A stretch of 64,000 bases of DNA from NCBI GenBank assembly GCA_964016885.1, contig OZ024754.1:806001-870000 (forward strand), given 5' to 3'. Shown piece after piece: positions 4,046 to 53,031 of the stretch; within the stretch, counting starts at the first letter, position 1, and every line of letters begins with the position of its first letter. The stretch is from Eledone cirrhosa (lineage: Eukaryota). Made by a program: the position numbers and the translations under genes. Under the pieces are notes generated by a model. The model was not told where the DNA came from. It worked only from the letters and a program-made list of their open reading frames with translations, and ran no database searches.

Positions 4046-5224
4046 TTAATTGTTATAAATAATGATGATTATCTTTTCTTAGTAGCATTGCATTGAGACA
4101 GACTTCAACTGTTATATTCTTGCTATCGTCATCGTTTAACGTCTATCTTCCATGCTAGCATGTGTAGGCCCTATCATTGTAACTTATCACTGTTATGTAA
4201 TACTTAGACACATACATATATATATCATAGCTGGAACCATAAACCACATCTTGGCTTATAAAAGTTATCTTGGAAAGCATTTTTTCACTTTATATAATGT
4301 TGAAATAAAGTAAAGTTAATAGTTCATGATTTTTTAAACAATTTTCTATTCAATAGAAATAATATTGTAATAACACTATTCTTTATTTTTTGATAGTATT
4401 ACTATATGCTTTATACAAGCTACTTATTGAGGAAGAAAAATTTCTTGTTCAGTTTACAGAATTAAGTAGGCTGTAATCTGATAACATACAGTCTGCAGCA
4501 GTTAGTGCAATGTAGTTGGTGAAGCAGTTATAGTATTAATGGCGTGTTGAAATAACAATTCGCAGTCTACCAATCCCATGTGCAAACAATATTCCTGCTA
4601 TTATCAAACAGAGATATTTGAATCATCAGTGACAAGTTATATTATTCCTTTTTTCATACCAAAAGAATTTGCTTAAGGAAAGTTAGGACACCCATAAAGA
4701 CTAGAAAGAAAAGAGGGAGTGTGTCTGTTTATCATAATCAGCAGCCACATTGGCAGTTGAATCACAACCATCATAGTCAGCTTGTGCTTTTCTTTTTCCC
4801 AGTAAGAAACTCTAAGGAGAGCTAGACAGCAGAAAGTATTCAGAGAAGAGCCCCCTCCCTCTGCCTCAAATGAGAGTTTCAGCCCTGAACTTCTTACACT
4901 AGATTAAATGAAAAGAAAATTTTGCATAAATATATTTAATAATGTTGATGCAGAAAGAAAAAAAGTTATAAATAGTTTACCTAATTTAGGAACTTCTTGA
5001 TTAGCTGCCAGTTGAAATAAGTTAAGAATAAAATTATTTACTAGGATAATAGTTAATAGAAAATTCGATTGGTTTAAAAGATTTTTAGAGTAATAAATTA
5101 GTTTGGTGATTAAATTGAGATTTTCCTGCATTGTATTACTTGTAGTGTGGTTGTTACTTTAAATTCTTTTAAGTTATCAGATTTTTGTTGAATGTAGGCA
5201 AATATCTGTGTATGATGAATATGA

Positions 5225-5650
5225 TCATCATCACCATTTAATGGCCATTTTTCCACGCTAGCATGGGTTAAGTGAGTTGTCCTGTTGTGAAAATGACGGG
5301 TCAGGTGACCATGTCTTGCTCATACAGAACTGTTTCTGGCTTGGTTTCTACAGCTGGATGCCCTTCCTAATATCAACCACATTTACAGTGTATACTGGGT
5401 GCTTATTGTCTTAACACCTACATGACCACTTTGCAGTGAGGACTTGGTGCTTTTTATTGTGATACCTACACGACCACATTGCTGTGTGCGCTGGGTGATT
5501 TTTGTTATGACACCTACATGACCACTTTTCAGTGTGGGCTGGGTGCTTTTTGTCTTGACACCTACACGACCACTTTACTGTGTGGACTGGGTACGTTTTG
5601 TTTTGACACCTACATGACTACTTTACAGTGTGGACTGGGTGCGTTTTGTT
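5225..5650 (-). repeat. RTE-tail SINE with expanded 48-bp minisatellite
   Basis: About 5 tandem units of GACACCTACATGACCACTTTACAGTGTGGACTGGGTGCTTTTTGTTGT; explains the 16-aa periodic ORF 5479-5685. Confidence 0.8.
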
Positions 5651-6439
5651 GTTTGTATATAGGATTTCTATATGCCACAGTTTAGCTAAGAATGTCTTGG
5701 TTTGAAATTGACTCAGTTATAAGAGTTACATTTATCTAAACACCTTCCATCAATAAATTTCAAATACAAGCTTAATGATTAGGAAGTTATATAACTTAAT
5801 CTCTATAAAAGTCTTGATTACCCTAGAGAGAGGCCGACCTGCTGGCCCTTCCGGTCGAGCACCCTTCCGGTCAAGCACTCTTCCGGTCGAGCACCCCCCA
5901 GCCTCCGACCACACCATACAAACAATTATTATAATGAAAGGGTTTGAAAAAGAGAAATTATATCCTGAAATATTTAATTTCATACATTTACTTCAGAAAC
6001 AAACTAATAATAAAACTTTTATTATATAGTCCTAATTTTGATTTCAAAGACATCATCATTTTACATCCACTTTTTAATGTTTGCATCTGTATCAAATGAG
6101 TTCTCAAGTTAAAATTATTGTAACAAATTATTAACACTGTATTATGTCTTTTGCATAGCTTCCTTTCACTGTTATTAAAGTACCAGTAATACACTGGATA
6201 TTTGCTGGCCTTGTGCCAAAAGTAGAAACAGTTATTTAATATTTAGTTATCAAAGTTTCAAATAGTTTGTATACTGTACCATGACACTAAACTATTTCAT
6301 GCTTTCAGAAAAACATATCCTGCTAAATAGTAATTTTTACTCTTGGCTTAACATAAATATTTTTTATAAGACGATTATATTTTCTAGTATTTAAAAAAAA
6401 AATGCAGTGTCGATAAGATATGGCTTTTAACATAAGTAC

Positions 6440-6856
6440 GAAGATAAAAGTACATAGAAAAGGGGTAATGAGATGGAGAGAAAGTAAGAACGGAATGGAG
6501 GGGAGGGTGTCAGACATAGTAGCAGAGAGGGGGGAGGGACAGAGAGAGAGGAAAAAAGTGAGAAGCTGTTAGAGAGATAGAGGGAGGGGACATAAAGAGT
6601 TGGCAGAATATAAGAAGCAAAGAGGTTAGGAGACACAGAGAGAGAAAAGCATAAAGAAATAAGCAGAAGATAAGAAGTAATGAGGTTAGGAGAGAGAGAC
6701 ATAAAGAAGTAGGCAGAATATAAGAAGTTAAGAGAGAGTGAGAGAAATAGTGAGAGAGAAAGCCCCCATCTACGTAACCTAGTTAGTCTTTCAAGTACCA
6801 TAACTATTTCCTCCGAGTAACATCACATTTAAACCTATCTTTTTTTACCAACAACT
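6440..6856 (+). promoter_or_regulatory. Putative annexin promoter and 5' UTR (GA-rich tract, Inr-like TTAGTC at 6783)
   Basis: GA-rich purine tract followed by an Inr-like motif about 75 nt upstream of ATG|GTAAGT. Confidence 0.45.
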
Positions 6857-6859
6857 ATG
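6857..6859 (+). CDS. Annexin exon 1 (start codon only)
   Basis: ACAACT ATG|GTAAGT, a perfect phase-0 donor that matches the phase-0 acceptor at 19601 and gives MATVNPAPNF... Confidence 0.65.
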
Positions 6860-7879
6860 GTAAGTACTTGTCTGAACTTTAATATTTTATCATTATTTTG
6901 CAACTAGTAAACATATCGGAAAACTAATCACCAAAAGAAACTTATTCTTATAATATTGATTGATTTTCATCCGTTTAGTGAGTGTTGTAGTGCGACAATA
7001 ATTCATGTGTCGATTCAGTGCACGGCCTGTTTAGATTTACTGCTTTTTTTTGTAATTAATTGAATTAATCTGGAGGAAGGGGCCGAAATCATGGCCTTCG
7101 CAATGCTTTTGGGAAAGGCATGAACGTCATACAATCTATGTAATCTCGAAAAGAAAAGTGGTGGGTTGTTAGACTAAATACTATGCTGTAATTTAGTTTC
7201 GTCGTTAGGTGTTCGATCCCTGTTGGAGGCCACTTTTACTTTCATTTCTCTTCATTTAGTTATGTCTGGGGAAAAAAATAAGGCAATCACTACTCTGCGT
7301 GATGTTTAGTCGCAGGTAAGCGCTGGTTGAACCGAAGTATGAACAAAGGCATTCCAGAACTACATTTCCGTTTCATTCGCTTATACTTTATTGTTATTTT
7401 ATATACCTAAAGCGAATCATAAACTGCACCACTATGTTCAAGCACCAAATTGAAGGAAGGATACCTCACTTTAACACACTGGCCATTCACAGCCATCATA
7501 TAGACTTTTCTTTTTTTCTGCTTTTTAAAAAGAGAAAGACTAAGAATTATAGAGCAAGATCGCTAAATCGCCTAATTTGGTCCCTGGGGTATAGAAAATT
7601 TAAAATTTCTTTTGCTCAGAACACTCCCTGAAACATAAGTATTATATGTGTAAAGTTTGAAAACAGTCGGTTGGGTGGTTCTAGAGTTTTAGGGATTCGA
7701 ACTCACACACACACACACAGACAGACATCCTCAGTTTTATATATATAGACTAGCAGAAAACCGCCCACCGTGTGGTTTTCTGCTAGTATATATATATATT
7801 ACACACACAGAAATGTATATATATTTCTGTGTGTGTATATATATATATATATATACACACACACAGAAATATATATTAC

Positions 7880-28727: not shown

Positions 28728-29100
28728 ATATATAATGTTGTTAATCATGATTAAATATGGTTTGGTTCTTTTCTCCTTAAATAAGAAAATATATTGAAAA
28801 TTCAGATAAAAATTCTGATAAAATTCTATGACAATTAAGTATTTATCCAATTTTTATGCTTGGCTTAGTTCTTTCCTCTAATTTTGGCAGCAGGCAGTGG
28901 ATTGGTAGAAGCAGTGTAGTGTCGGACAAAAAAGCTTGTGTTATTCCATTTCTTTGCATTTTGAGTAGAAATCTCACCAAAGTCCACTTTTATGTTTCTG
29001 CTCCACTTTCATGTTTCGGGGTTAATAATCTATCTATGAAAAAACATTTCAAATTTTTAACCAAGTTTCATATTATTGTCTTTTTTGTTATTTTTTACAG

Positions 29101-29195
29101 GTACTGATGAAGCAGCAATTATTAAAATTATGTCATCACATAGTAATCAACAACGACAAGAAATAGAAAAAGTATTCAAAACAATGTATGGAAAG
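29101..29195 (+). CDS. Annexin exon 3 (GTDEAAIIKIMSSHSNQQRQEIEKVFKTMYGK)
   Basis: CAG/GT boundaries, 95 nt, phase-compatible. Confidence 0.95.
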
Positions 29196-30392: not shown

Positions 30393-30909
30393 GTAAGATT
30401 CTTTATATTATTGCCGTTTTTCATGTATTATAGTTTGCTTGAAGAATTATGTAAAGTGGATGTGGGGCGAGGGGCCAGTGATCAGAGTTCACAGGCCTTT
30501 CACGCTCTCTTTGGTCAGGGCGCAGTACTATGTGGGCGTACATGTTCATGAGTGCGATGTTTGTGTGTGAGAGACTCCCTGTATTTTTTTGCCGGACATA
30601 AAACAAATGAATATCCACACAGGGAGATTCAGTCTGTACTCGAGAGGAGACGCAAAGGTAGGTCTCTATGCTTCCTTATGACACTGCTTTTTGTTGTGAC
30701 ACCTTCACGACCACTTTACAGTGTCGACTGGGTGCTTTTTGTCAGGACACCCACATGACCACTTTACAGTGTGGGCTGGGTGCTTCTTGTTATGACACCT
30801 ACACGACCACTTTACAGTATGGACTGCGTGCTTTTTGTCATGTGTATCTATTTGAGAAACGAGTATTAAATTTGAAAATCATTTTACTAAAACCAAATAA
30901 TTATTTCAG

Positions 30910-31000
30910 GGTGCTGGTACTGATGAAGAGGCTCTGATAGAGATTCTTCTTACTCGGGATAATTGTGAGATTGCAGAGATTAAACAACATTTCAAGAAAT
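30910..31000 (+). CDS. Annexin exon 5 (GAGTDEEALIEILLTRDNCEIAEIKQHFKK)
   Basis: CAG/GTAAGT boundaries, 91 nt, GAGTDE motif. Confidence 0.95.
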
Positions 31001-46522: not shown

Positions 46523-46628
46523 CTGATCAGCTTGTTCAGCAGCATTGTTGGAAGGAAACTCCATACTGCTAGGAATAAGACCAAGCTGTCCTGAGATGTA
46601 CATAGTCTTATCAACTACAACAGCTTGG
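46523..46628 (-). CDS. RIDA: RidA exon 2 (SQAVVVDKTMYISGQLGL..EQADQ)
   Basis: TAG/GTATGT boundaries, 106 nt, YISGQ motif. Confidence 0.95.
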
Positions 46629-48894: not shown

Positions 48895-49535
48895 TTAAAG
48901 GCACACAAGGGGCCAAGTGATGATATTAAACAAGGTGGAAAATTAAGCAGTGGGGAGGAGGAGAGAGGAAAAAATCTGAAAAATTTAATAAGCCAGGTGG
49001 AAAAGGGAGGGGACGATTATTTGAGAACCGGGAGTAGAGGGTCAAAGAAATTGAAAAAAGTGATATGAGGTGAGAAGGAATTCTAGAATTATATAAGATC
49101 ATGGATAGTGTTATGCATTGTGTAAACCAGGTGATTACTTAGGATACTAAAACCTGGAGTGCCACACCAATTCTGAACAATTTATAAAATTACTTAAGCC
49201 AAAAAAAATTAGGAACAGGCACAAAAACTTAGTAAAGAGAATAGGAGAGGTCACTCCCCACTCCCAGAAGAGAAGATAGGATAGGTATGAGGTAGGGTAG
49301 ATGAGAGGGGTGTTATGGACAGTTATGGGGTAGGGTAGATGAGAGGGTTGTGCTGTTTCATGAGATTTGTCATGAAGCATTTCAAATGTTGCCAGATAAC
49401 AGATTTACTCATTGATATTACTATATATTTATAGACACGTGACCACTGGCATTACATAGTGTCTCTGTCTATCTCACCCTGCTATTTGTATTGAATGTCT
49501 TTATATCAAATTATGTTGGAAGGTTTTAATTTAAA

Positions 49536-49681
49536 CTAGCAGAATGGCTCGGCATTGCTCAGGATTTGCTCTAGGGTTCTTATATATTTGATATATATTT
49601 ATCCTTATCGAGCCTCGTGAAATAAATATGTTTGTTTATATTTTGTTATTGTGTATGCAAAAATATCTGTACACGAATATA

Positions 49682-49721
<40 letters not shown>

Positions 49722-50109
49722 TATCAGATTAAAGTTTCAAGCAAAGAATCGGTGCTTTCACCCTTAACAGGATCTTCTGAAACTAAAAAAATCAATCTGT
49801 GAACGCAGAAGTAAATATTTCGAAAAACGTTACACACTATATATGCATATATATACAGACATATAGTGTCATAATGTCGTAATGCAGACAACTAGACAGA
49901 TATTATAAGGGCACAACGTTATATCTATGTATCTATCTAAAAAGAAAGATAATGCGGCCCCTAGGGCATTGAAAATTTGAAATATTTTTTGCTCAAAACA
50001 CTTACAGGACCATAAGTATTACATGTGTAAAGTTTGAAAACATCGGTTGGGTGGTTCCCGAGTTTTAGGGAGTCAGACAGTCAGACATTCTCTGTTTTAG
50101 ATATATAGA
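49536..50109 (-). mobile_element. Non-autonomous Helitron
   Basis: TC start and hairpin + CTAG end on minus; sits inside a TTAA-type MITE. Confidence 0.7.
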
Positions 50110-51726
50110 TAAAGATTCTTTAAAATAGGTGGTTTTGTTTGATAGAAAGAAGTGTTTTTGAGTGGGTTGCTATCAAAAGGGTTAAACCGGGGGATAGATT
50201 GCAGCATTCCTAGTTAATTTTCCTAGCAGTTGAGACCACTTGTGTTCTGGGTCCCTTATATTGGGATGGAGTTGGCCACCTGCATGGGTGAATCCTGTGA
50301 GTTGGAATGGCTTTTCCAGTGCATTTCTTGCTCTCCTCAGGAGTAATACAGTCTCTATTCTGTTTGCTGAGACCATGAGATAGCATATACCTCGAGTTCT
50401 GCACATCAAAGTGGCAGAGAAGATGAGCGGCCTGGCGACAACATTTTATCAACTGGTTTGTGTTGTTACTGTAAGCCATTATTGTGATATGTAGTCATAA
50501 ACTGGACAATCTTCTAACGCCCTCCTCCCCATACATATCAACGTAACACTACATGGGTTACAGGAGACAGACTAAAATAACATGACATTTTCTATGGAAT
50601 AACCTAGCTTGGTTTAAAAAGAATTTTTAATTTTAAAAAAAATGTCCCGTTGTGAAATAAAACAGAAGGTTGCAGGCACCACTTTTTAATACCATAATTT
50701 ATTGGAAAACTACATTTTTCAGGCTGTGGCATTCGAAACTTTTGATGGAGCTGAGCTGTCGAAACTTAGGTTTTTGACATGGTTGTCAGCGACCGAGCAC
50801 CTCCTACTGAAGGGTGTTTGACTATTCTAGAGCATTAGCAACGCTATCACTCGCGGTAATCCCTTGGGTGACTTAGCTTGGTCAAATGTTTTTAGAAAGG
50901 AAACACCAGCATTTTTTCTTGTGTAAAAGATTTTTTTATATATTTAACTAGCTGAATTACTCGGCGTTGCCCAGGTTACTGCTGTTCTTATTCAGATTAG
51001 TAAACAATAAATATGAAGATATCTTTTTTTTTCTCATAATTATTTCAAAATATCTATATTTTATTAAAAAAAAATATCAAAATTGTAATAATAGAATTTA
51101 GAAATTAAAATCTTGAAACACCTTAGGGTAAACAATATTCATTGTGTAATTTTTTGTTGGTGTCCAAATGAATAAATTGTTGCTACACACTCACACATAC
51201 ATATACTAAGACCGACACACACAGACATACATTCATGCAGACACACGCATAGCTTTTCACCTCATTTTTTTACAGTCGCTACATATGTGTAGATGTGTGT
51301 ATTTAATAACATACCTAATGAACACGCACACACTCATACATATTCATATACAAAATCTGATGTCGTGTTGTTTTCTATTGTTTTAATCCAAATGAAATAA
51401 AAATTCACACATACACTCACAGACTCACACATAGCCATACATTCAAGCACACCTATCTGTCATCACATATGTATCTGTATGTGTAGATGTGTGTGTGTGT
51501 GTGTGTGTGTGTGTTTAATTGTCTATATGTATGTGTAGATGTGTGTGTGTGTGTTTAATTTTCTGAGGTCTAATGTATGTAACAAACTCGCAAACAAACA
51601 CACACACACACACACACAATCACAGACACACTCATACAATGTGATTGGAAAAATTAAACTCAAAAGTGTAGTAACACGTATAAATAAAAAATCAAATATG
51701 ATTGTGAGTTGGGCACATGGAGCGGA

Positions 51727-51791
51727 TATTTTATTATATATATTTCAAGGGCAACCAAGGCAGTCTTGGTGCGCTTTCATCAGACAAAATA
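51727..51791 (-). ncRNA. Minimal type I hammerhead ribozyme (PLE type), minus-strand copy
   Basis: Exact reverse complement of 51902-51966. Confidence 0.8.
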
Positions 51792-51901
51792 CAAAATTTG
51801 TTTTATAAATAGTGACATAGCCATGGAAAACAACCTTGACGGTTGAAAATTCGTCAAGGTTGTTTTCCACGGCTATGTTACTATTTATAAAACAAATTTT
51901 G

Positions 51902-51966
51902 TATTTTGTCTGATGAAAGCGCACCAAGACTGCCTTGGTTGCCCTTGAAATATATATAATAAAATA
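51902..51966 (+). ncRNA. Minimal type I hammerhead ribozyme (PLE type), plus-strand copy
   Basis: Stem I UAUUUUGU/AUAAAAUA; CUGAUGA at 51910-51916; stem II AAG-C-GCA-CCAAG-ACUGC-CUUGG-U-UGC-C-CUU; GAAA at 51947-51950; palindromic UAUAUA stem III; AUA cleavage triplet at 51956-51958. Confidence 0.82.
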
Positions 51967-52004
51967 ATTATGGTTTTATAAATATAGTTTCCATTTATTA
52001 ATAT

Positions 52005-52040
<36 letters not shown>

Positions 52041-52207
52041 ATATTGTAACTTCTAATTGAGTTTGTTTGAGTGAATAATGACATATAATCAATATTAAAA
52101 CATCTTTTTAACTTTTAAACAGGCTCTTTATAGAAGTAGAAATAGAGAAAAAGTTTCTTTCAGCTAATATTTCACGTGTCTTTTATCCTTTTTTTATAAA
52201 TACCATT

Positions 52208-52402
52208 AATTGTTTCTATTTTAGGCTCAAGGCCAGCAATTACCCAGTACATTACTCGTACTTTATTTTATCGAAGAATGTTTCATCCGTAAAGATGAAA
52301 GGCAAAGTTAACCTCGGCCGGATTTGAACTCAGATCGTAAAGGGACGTAACTATGCTGGAAAGCATGTCCGACTCTCTACCGATACTGTCAACTCACCAC
52401 CC
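52208..52402 (-). mobile_element. tRNA-derived SINE
   Basis: Family consensus. Confidence 0.8.
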
Positions 52403-53031
52403 TTTAAATGCATTTACTTTATAACGAGATAGAAAATATGATTGCGTGAAGTTCGACTGTTTTTCAAGGAAAATAAGAGTAATCGAAACATTGTTTCAAA
52501 AGTTTTTTCTCTTCTCTGTTAAATGACTTTATTTTCCCCCGTGTGTTCTCACAGTAACGTTTACTATCGGCATGTTATGGATCAGCGAAGAATCTTTATG
52601 CGGTCGTTCGAATTACTAGTAATAGCACCCTACCATCTATAAAAATAAGACACATTAAATATAATAGTCCTCGGTACATTGTTTCTTGAAACACAGGCGG
52701 AATAGTCATGGCTGGAACGTTTAATTAAGGGCTTGCTGCTTATCAGCATATAATACACACATTCTTATATACACATAAGTAGGAATGTATTTGTTTGTAA
52801 ATAACATTAGAAATTGCTCACAATTCTTTTAAATACAATTAACTATTGCTAGGAACATCACAAATATAAAACACCAAAATCAGAGCGAGAGAAAGAAAAA
52901 AAAGGGGGAAGGACAAAAACGACACATGTTGAAAAAAAAATTGTCTAACCGTTTAACATTTTATATCCTGTGGGAATGCAAAAAACCAAAACAAAACAAA
53001 CAAAAGGCGAACTATATAAATTATATTATAC

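Follow-up and report, generated by a model that had tools for sequence, protein, structure and literature searches.

The question raised by this locus is how a near-perfect palindrome, with a ribozyme motif on either strand, came to lie in an intron of the RidA gene, and what its ribozymes might do there. In the window (the whole 64-kb stretch of DNA that was analysed), inverted-repeat arms occupy positions 51727-51841 and 51852-51966. Alignment of the arms bore out the dimensions given in an initial annotation of this DNA: arms of 115 bp that are complementary at 113/115 positions, with mismatches at 51814 and 51823, around a loop of 10 nt. The same annotation had placed the palindrome in RidA intron 1, and this assignment also held. 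Comparison with solved RidA structures gives a match for exon 2, PF01042 is hit by exons 2 and 4 with scores under its curated cut-off, and one contig of sequencing run X4 joins position 46628 directly to 53032. X4 is not recorded as RNA, yet it contains this spliced contig, whose junction fixes the bounds of the minus-strand GT...AG intron at 53031 to 46629. The hairpin lies ~1 kb from the donor site of this transcribed intron.

The outer 65 nt of both arms are identical, and each strand carries one type I hammerhead motif, at 51902-51966 on the plus strand (predicted cut after 51958) and at 51727-51791 on the minus strand, which is that of the RidA pre-mRNA (predicted cut after 51735). Each motif comprises, in order, an 8-bp stem I with one G-U pair, CUGAUGA, an 11-bp stem II with one mismatch and one bulge, GAAA, stem III, an AUA site, and the closing strand of stem I. 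Stem III is the palindrome UAUAUA, AUAUAUAU. With the core and three helices in order, motif reading agrees with the two claims that there is one type I hammerhead per strand and that it is of the dimer type with a palindromic stem III. A search with hammerhead models, also proposed in the initial annotation, went the other way, as Rfam gave no hammerhead match at E up to 1 (6 kb) or at E up to 10 (101 bases), and returned microRNA-like hairpin matches only, below their gathering scores. The motif, known here from sequence, resembles the minimal hammerheads of metazoan Penelope-like elements (PLEs), which the available text of Cervera and de la Pena (2014; PMC4209133) describes as type I, with a long helix II, a palindromic helix III, and dispersed truncated copies. 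It differs from them in its stem I of 8 bp and in its first stem II pair, which is A-U with no extra base before it; the same text calls G-C highly conserved at this pair.

Copies elsewhere in the genome indicate what the palindrome is. Exact matches to a 20-mer spanning the core number 953 genome-wide, and those to its reversed control 0, so the palindrome cannot be put down to chance, and the copy-number search suggested by the initial annotation reveals an abundant family. A genome search returned 1493 candidates, of which the best 40, those that were scored, are all full palindromes of 229-257 bp. Rough capture-recapture from two motifs, assuming their independence (8/60 and 25/90), puts the number of arms genome-wide at ~4,700 to 7,100. 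In other copies, the arms pass the ribozyme by ~42 nt and then meet (TA)n, or add a 91-nt tail before (TA)n. The 3' ends of 277 arms accordingly form two groups, the first of 148 arms (+90 to +109 from the core) and the second of 110 (+170 to +189); the other 19 end elsewhere. The element family has two fixed 3' ends ~91 nt apart. Target-site duplications are unreadable within (TA)n.

The junction between the arms varies between copies, and the exact junction of the window copy occurs at 2 places in the 3.0 Gb genome. The second place, L002, is 98% identical and lacks a G found in stem I of the window copy; two further loci (L003 and L014) have near-identical junctions. L002 (G000:C2:70496664-70497246) is itself a 584-bp palindrome with tails on both arms, which are identical over 155 compared sites. 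Tandem arrays, another check that had been proposed, proved scarce, with tandem upstream copies at just 2/83 sites, and the 11 close pairs among the first 100 listed 20-mer matches, read by eye, are all minus-then-plus. Two other kinds of element were considered and set aside. A MITE or fold-back DNA transposon should have fixed terminal inverted repeats, a fixed interior and a target duplication, and here the ends are asymmetric and the centres vary; a non-LTR retrozyme should consist of head-to-tail units, and here the arms are divergent and the listed close pairs all minus-then-plus. Four loci (L125, L140, L232 and L020) carry younger repeats inserted into the AT-rich region between stem III and stem I. 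At others (among them L009, L016, L090, L099, L109, L126, L184, L189 and L224), different hammerhead families are nested in the same TA runs; in all, 224 distinct motifs of such families were seen in the fetched loci, mostly with a palindromic stem III of differing sequence.

Many copies extend upstream for at least 1.5 kb into frames with reverse transcriptase (RT) and nuclease motifs. One of them is L107, which runs from a ribozyme and tail through a 743-residue open frame and a 1.4-kb 3' UTR to a second, degenerate ribozyme that ends at the short site. Its ATG lies 243 nt after the core, with the two 3'-end sites 145 and 55 nt before the ATG, and over 128 nt its 5' arm shares 93.75% identity with the window arm; other copies with open reading frames (L109 and L116) match the window arm at 92-96%. 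The window sequence is thus continuous with ORF-bearing copies, which upholds the PLE origin proposed in the initial annotation, and the autonomous partner that it wished to see has a candidate in L107, with an RT and GIY-YIG frame by motif, albeit with changes in the RT motifs. Conversely, the suggestion of a distinct, small non-autonomous element was not sustained, since the same sequence forms the pLTR of long ORF-bearing copies and the exact junction occurs at 2 places only. We consider it almost certain that the window sequence is a ribozyme-bearing leader (pLTR) scrap of a Penelope-like retroelement.

Several features characteristic of EN+ PLEs were found. A single frame with RT followed by GIY-YIG is evident from motif reading and homology, and frames of 503-649 residues in L108, L109, L112 and L115 have RT motifs and a VY..YVG nuclease motif. 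L107 has a pLTR-ORF-pLTR arrangement with the hammerhead in the pLTR. An inverted, 5'-truncated copy with a tail on one side is present in 35/38 sampled pairs; the window copy lacks its tail side. The frame of L107 is 36% identical over 736 residues to a full-length unnamed database protein. Pfam returned no RT or GIY-YIG family for the element's own frames, and a sub-cut-off GIY-YIG match for a relative, P0004; a PDB search with the element frames yielded nothing relevant. Motifs described for the Hydra clade, a group of C-terminal EN+ PLEs, in the accessible part of Craig et al. (2021; PMC8557442) recur here. L107 and L110 have RWR, one residue off the RWK of the Hydra clade, and DKT instead of DKG, while the frames of L053, L113, L114 and L115 have the CxCX5C linker, no CCHH, and CxxC and CxH around E and N. 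The hammerhead, the inverted 5'-truncated copy with a tail at one end, and the preference for (TA)n targets are likewise shared with that clade, (TA)n being found at the 3' flanks of family copies and (TA)15 in the window. Based on these motifs and on the 36% identity to the unnamed relative, the element would be a PLE of the Hydra-clade type. It is longer than its clade mates, at ~4.1 kb with a 1.4-kb 3' UTR versus generally under 3 kb, and its tail is 91 nt versus the 30-40 nt described for PLEs in the same excerpts. Hydra-1_Obim of Octopus bimaculoides, from the supplement to PMC8557442 as far as it was available, is a different family, whose ribozyme and protein start differ from those of the element here. 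A protein query with the nuclease half gave 70,919 first-look candidates genome-wide, of which 142 were scored; by that number, Hydra-type elements may far outnumber what the published single octopus family suggests.

Conservation across the family was assessed in 130 arms, drawn from 121 loci in a way that took no account of the core but with a BLAST step that required motif-spanning arms. In this sample, a second allele reaches 10% in 0/35 columns belonging to the core, stem I or stem III, compared with 27/122 columns elsewhere (p 0.0007). Between subfamilies, one stem II pair switches from C-G to U-A. A set of 18 rows from the same and neighbouring families, mostly chosen by a pairing filter and therefore leaning toward structure, shows changes on both sides at 11/23 pairs and 88.9% pairing, against 38-52% in slid controls; among these rows stem III remains palindromic as AUGCGCAU. 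Free of that filter is the self-complementarity of stem III, where 156/205 positions pair over 33 distinct strings, which are not independent, versus 96 in shuffles, and 0/5000 shuffles reach 156. Core conservation and stem covariation among genomic copies, the lack of which the initial annotation would have counted against a ribozyme, are thus both present, with the covariation rows mostly pairing-filtered. From these comparisons we take the ribozyme to be selected in the element lineage, and a passenger at the RidA locus.

At the locus itself, the left arm is element leader on the minus strand at 51727-51851, which begins 68-70 nt before the ribozyme core and stops where stem I ends. The loop at 51842-51851 is natural element sequence on the minus strand that is present in the left arm only, and a 2-nt CG overlap flanks the junction. 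The right arm is element leader on the plus strand at 51852-52008, beginning 58 nt ahead of the core and finishing at the short 3' end of the element family, and adjoins (TA)15 at 52009-52038, the usual target of the family. The left side is different, as the arm is cut at 51727 and has neither the downstream 42 nt nor any tail. It abuts a piece of an unrelated dispersed repeat at 51639-51726 (54 candidates, of which the best 40 were scored and are 90-97% identical), and nine other copies of that repeat continue into one common sequence, which is not seen in 49500-53000. With the flanking repeat broken at the same point and its continuation absent, the neat left ending at stem I is probably a deletion breakpoint, and the left junction was likely made by deletion. 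A displaced left tail was not found in the whole 64-kb window. We rejected priming at a third site, where stem I ends, as the source of the left end, because the +50 to +59 bin holds the ends of only 3/277 arms and the break in the flanking repeat falls at that point too. The initial annotation had treated the ribozymes as the boundaries of the element; in fact, element sequence carries on past the right-hand ribozyme as far as 52008, and on the left the palindrome ends at a breakpoint that interrupts a different repeat.

The insertion appears comparatively young, since the window arms differ by 1.7%, compared with an average over pairs of 3.5-3.6%. Its private variant, the stem I G (an A to G change), is found in its 33-mer context only in the window's own two arms, genome-wide. 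It is also likely to be lineage-specific, since the family is scarce, at 85% likeness, in the contigs of three related organisms, in one of which the flanking intron is covered; among the contigs listed for these three organisms and X4, none bridges an empty insertion site. Nearby, at 52207-52400, there is a SINE-like repeat with many copies in the window, and a contig of one related organism spans both of its sides without it.

To learn how such pairs are built, we turned to sibling copies. Among the first 86 distinct chromosome-1 sites of 20-mer matches, 2 had no anchor and 4 ran off the fetched DNA, leaving 80, of which 58 had an adjacent inverted match; 13 of these were TA-run matches and were dropped. 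An adjacent inverted piece is thus present at 45/80 sites, so that head-to-head is the commonest form and the inverted termini presented by the initial annotation as typical of PLE insertions are indeed so here. Dropping 7 pairs with cut ends left 38, in which the tail is on exactly one arm in 35, on both in 2, and on neither in 1 (p 3e-8 against one half). In the 35 one-tail pairs, the arm that reaches further upstream is the tail-less one in 28 and the tailed one in 5, with 2 ties. Upstream reach has a recurrent limit at an A at position -79 before the core, which lies in an initiator-like TCACT. This 5' boundary is seen in 421 copies with a non-natural preceding base, and a further 873 have the natural C (of 30 such copies inspected, 21 scored as natural upstream under a simple identity cut); the boundary also occurs in copies joined straight to (TA)n (L059, L183 and L189). 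A G precedes -79 in 53/100 listed copies (counted by eye; p 2e-12 against 0.21). Among 15 G cases inspected in 30 loci (L179-L208), the partner arm or a local duplication accounts for 8, another 2 are ambiguous and 5 read as untemplated, and the G as the trace of a copied cap is suggestive only.

A comparison of arms began with 68 pairs, 8 of which were dropped by eye as nested independent insertions. Within the remaining 60, arms diverge by 3.6 per 100 nt, versus 8.5 for shuffled partners, and rare variants common to both arms occur at 0.33 per 100 nt, versus 0.012. The rate is similar for near arms (23/6595) and for arms more than 300 nt apart (4/1509), the distant class consisting of 4 events only. 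These figures indicate that the arms of one pair share one source, which could be a source locus, or the product of gene conversion, rather than a single molecule. The idea that variants common to both arms are fossil A-to-I edits of the template RNA found no support, since the 28 shared rare variants of 67 pairs include 6 A>G and 4 T>C (p 0.28).

In our reading, the palindrome very probably consists of two short leader copies placed head to head beside (TA)n and likely written by the enzyme of the element from two nicks on opposite strands, with the ribozymes predicted to be locked in the resulting hairpin. For the manner of writing, we favour, with somewhat less assurance, two primings on one sense RNA. 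The transcript would start at the initiator-like TCACT, as judged from the DNA. The element protein, probably a dimer, would nick both strands of (TA)n; the two 3' ends would prime within a single RNA, one of them at the short site and the other at the tail site. The resulting cDNAs would both extend toward the 5' end of that RNA, with the upstream-primed cDNA usually going further, and their ends would be joined via a few matching bases, CG in the window copy. A later or concurrent deletion likely took the outer part of the left arm in the window. Precedent for several steps comes from the Poseidon element PAc of Anolis, in which, according to the available portion of Frangieh et al. (2024; PMC11167929), nicking and extension take place on both strands, reverse transcription starts at two internal sites that bound the tail, and a dimer is predicted. 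The window copy is off the majority pattern, its shorter-reaching arm being tail-less and its other end lost, and because its left end is lost the two-primer reading rests on sibling copies. Even among these, 5/35 pairs show the reverse reach, counter to the pattern expected.

A single product folding back on itself strikes us as a rather unlikely origin. One cDNA, or an antisense RNA as proposed in the excerpted text of PMC3846280, would self-prime at its 3' end and copy itself, and a nuclease would trim the ends at different sites so as to leave the tail on one side; the part of PMC8557442 at hand does attribute the one-sided tail to nuclease resolution. Rare variants common to both arms sit well with such an origin, as do the short overlaps often found at junctions (CG in the window copy) and the 5/35 pairs with the tail on the further-reaching arm, which is what plain fold-back predicts. 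However, the further-reaching arm would then be the template and should hold all that its copy holds, yet it is tail-less in 28/35 pairs, and the -79 boundary falls at an initiator-like motif of the sense strand, also in copies joined straight to (TA)n. The one-sided tail, the reach of the tail-less arm, the shared variants and the stop at TCACT together lead us to favour two cDNAs on one sense RNA over fold-back. The arms might instead have become alike once inserted, through gene conversion or hairpin repair, which would be compatible with the same element identity. We regard this as unlikely, despite the identical arms and two-sided tails of L002, the 4 rare variants that the arms of L017 have in common, and the presence of the window's private G in both arms, given that arms differ at 3.6 but share rare variants at only 0.33 per 100 nt, with a similar rate more than 300 nt apart, and that 2 sites close to the loop still distinguish the window arms from each other.

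It is very improbable that a non-autonomous palindromic element copies as a unit and that the window copy came from a master such as L002: that locus has the same junction at 98% identity, and L003 and L014 have near-identical ones, but the exact junction is at 2 places in 3.0 Gb, with variation among the other junctions, the window's stem I G is absent from L002, and the sequence is continuous with ORF-bearing copies. We give almost no credence to the hairpin having been co-opted as an editing-controlled ribozyme switch in the RidA pre-mRNA, even though the intron that holds it is transcribed, the donor is ~1 kb away and both motifs are intact. On either strand, the antisense arm is transcribed before the ribozyme, and predicted folds confirm the masking of the ribozyme by its own antisense that had been proposed for it, with -189.5 kcal/mol for the hairpin against -94.4 kcal/mol for the best fold with the ribozyme forced, a gap of ~95 kcal/mol. 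The monomer ribozyme fold has a predicted probability of 1e-4 even without the antisense arm, and the dimer stem III duplex a predicted -3.2 kcal/mol. The ribozymes are thus predicted to be buried in the hairpin and silent at the RidA locus. Moreover, the hairpin is one of thousands of similar arms and its insertion is likely lineage-specific. Comparable PLE ribozymes are, in the texts as available, inactive as monomers, with weak cleavage by dimers (PMC4209133), or dependent on protein (PMC11167929).

The head-to-head layout of PLE copies is already published (PMC4209133, PMC8557442 and PMC3846280, as excerpted). In Schistosoma, such ribozyme pairs are described 100-700 bp apart on opposite strands (PMC4209133, in part). 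Penelope insertions of Adineta vaga (Arkhipova et al., 2013; PMC3846280) share with the element here the head-to-head inverted pLTR, the optional tail on one arm, and a TCACT initiator-like motif in the pLTR; the available text of that paper favours self-priming on an antisense template, whereas our counts favour two primings on sense RNA. Poseidon PAc likewise has a ribozyme near the ORF start, two internal start sites bounding the tail, and AT-rich targets, but belongs to another clade and has its start sites inside the ORF, where those of L107 lie before the ATG. Its ribozyme is described as dispensable for insertion in vitro, and inverted insertions are not treated in the part of PMC11167929 that was available. 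Metazoan non-LTR retrozymes (bioRxiv 10.64898/2026.07.22.740005, seen in excerpt) also carry a type I hammerhead in a short non-coding pLTR-related repeat, but are head-to-tail tandems, whereas the element here is head-to-head and has ORF-bearing parents.

Whether PLE head-to-head insertions in general arise via twin internal priming, with a dimer, both nicks, two sites 91 nt apart and one capped sense RNA of which mostly the leader is copied to the cap, seems to us an even question; most short copies would then represent the complete 5' leader rather than truncated 3' ends. We found no twin-priming model for PLE inverted insertions in the mainly open literature covered, with older Penelope work largely outside it, and such a model may be published. 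If it is true, the thousands of copies are a fossil record that can decide between fold-back and two primers and map the promoter. The abundant Hydra-clade family permits counts on how PLE inverted insertions are built, a step listed as unresolved in the accessible part of PMC8557442, and the counts make predictions, namely a start site at -79, two priming sites, and a tail on the shorter-reaching arm. The RidA intron locus itself is ordinary, a young retroelement scrap, and two-ribozyme palindromes would be routine in such genomes. More speculatively, hairpins of this kind, in their thousands, might together offer a bulk substrate to ADAR or Dicer.

Some long copies (L026, L028, L034 and others) carry, 40-110 nt upstream of -79, what we take to be an octamer-like motif, ATTTGCAT, and a pyrimidine tract ending in CAG. 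This tract, upstream of the leader, is presumably acceptor-like and may relate to the retained intron characteristic of EN+ PLEs. Elsewhere in the window, exon-like stretches on the plus strand at ~29090-29170 and 30905-30990 read, we assume, like annexin repeats.
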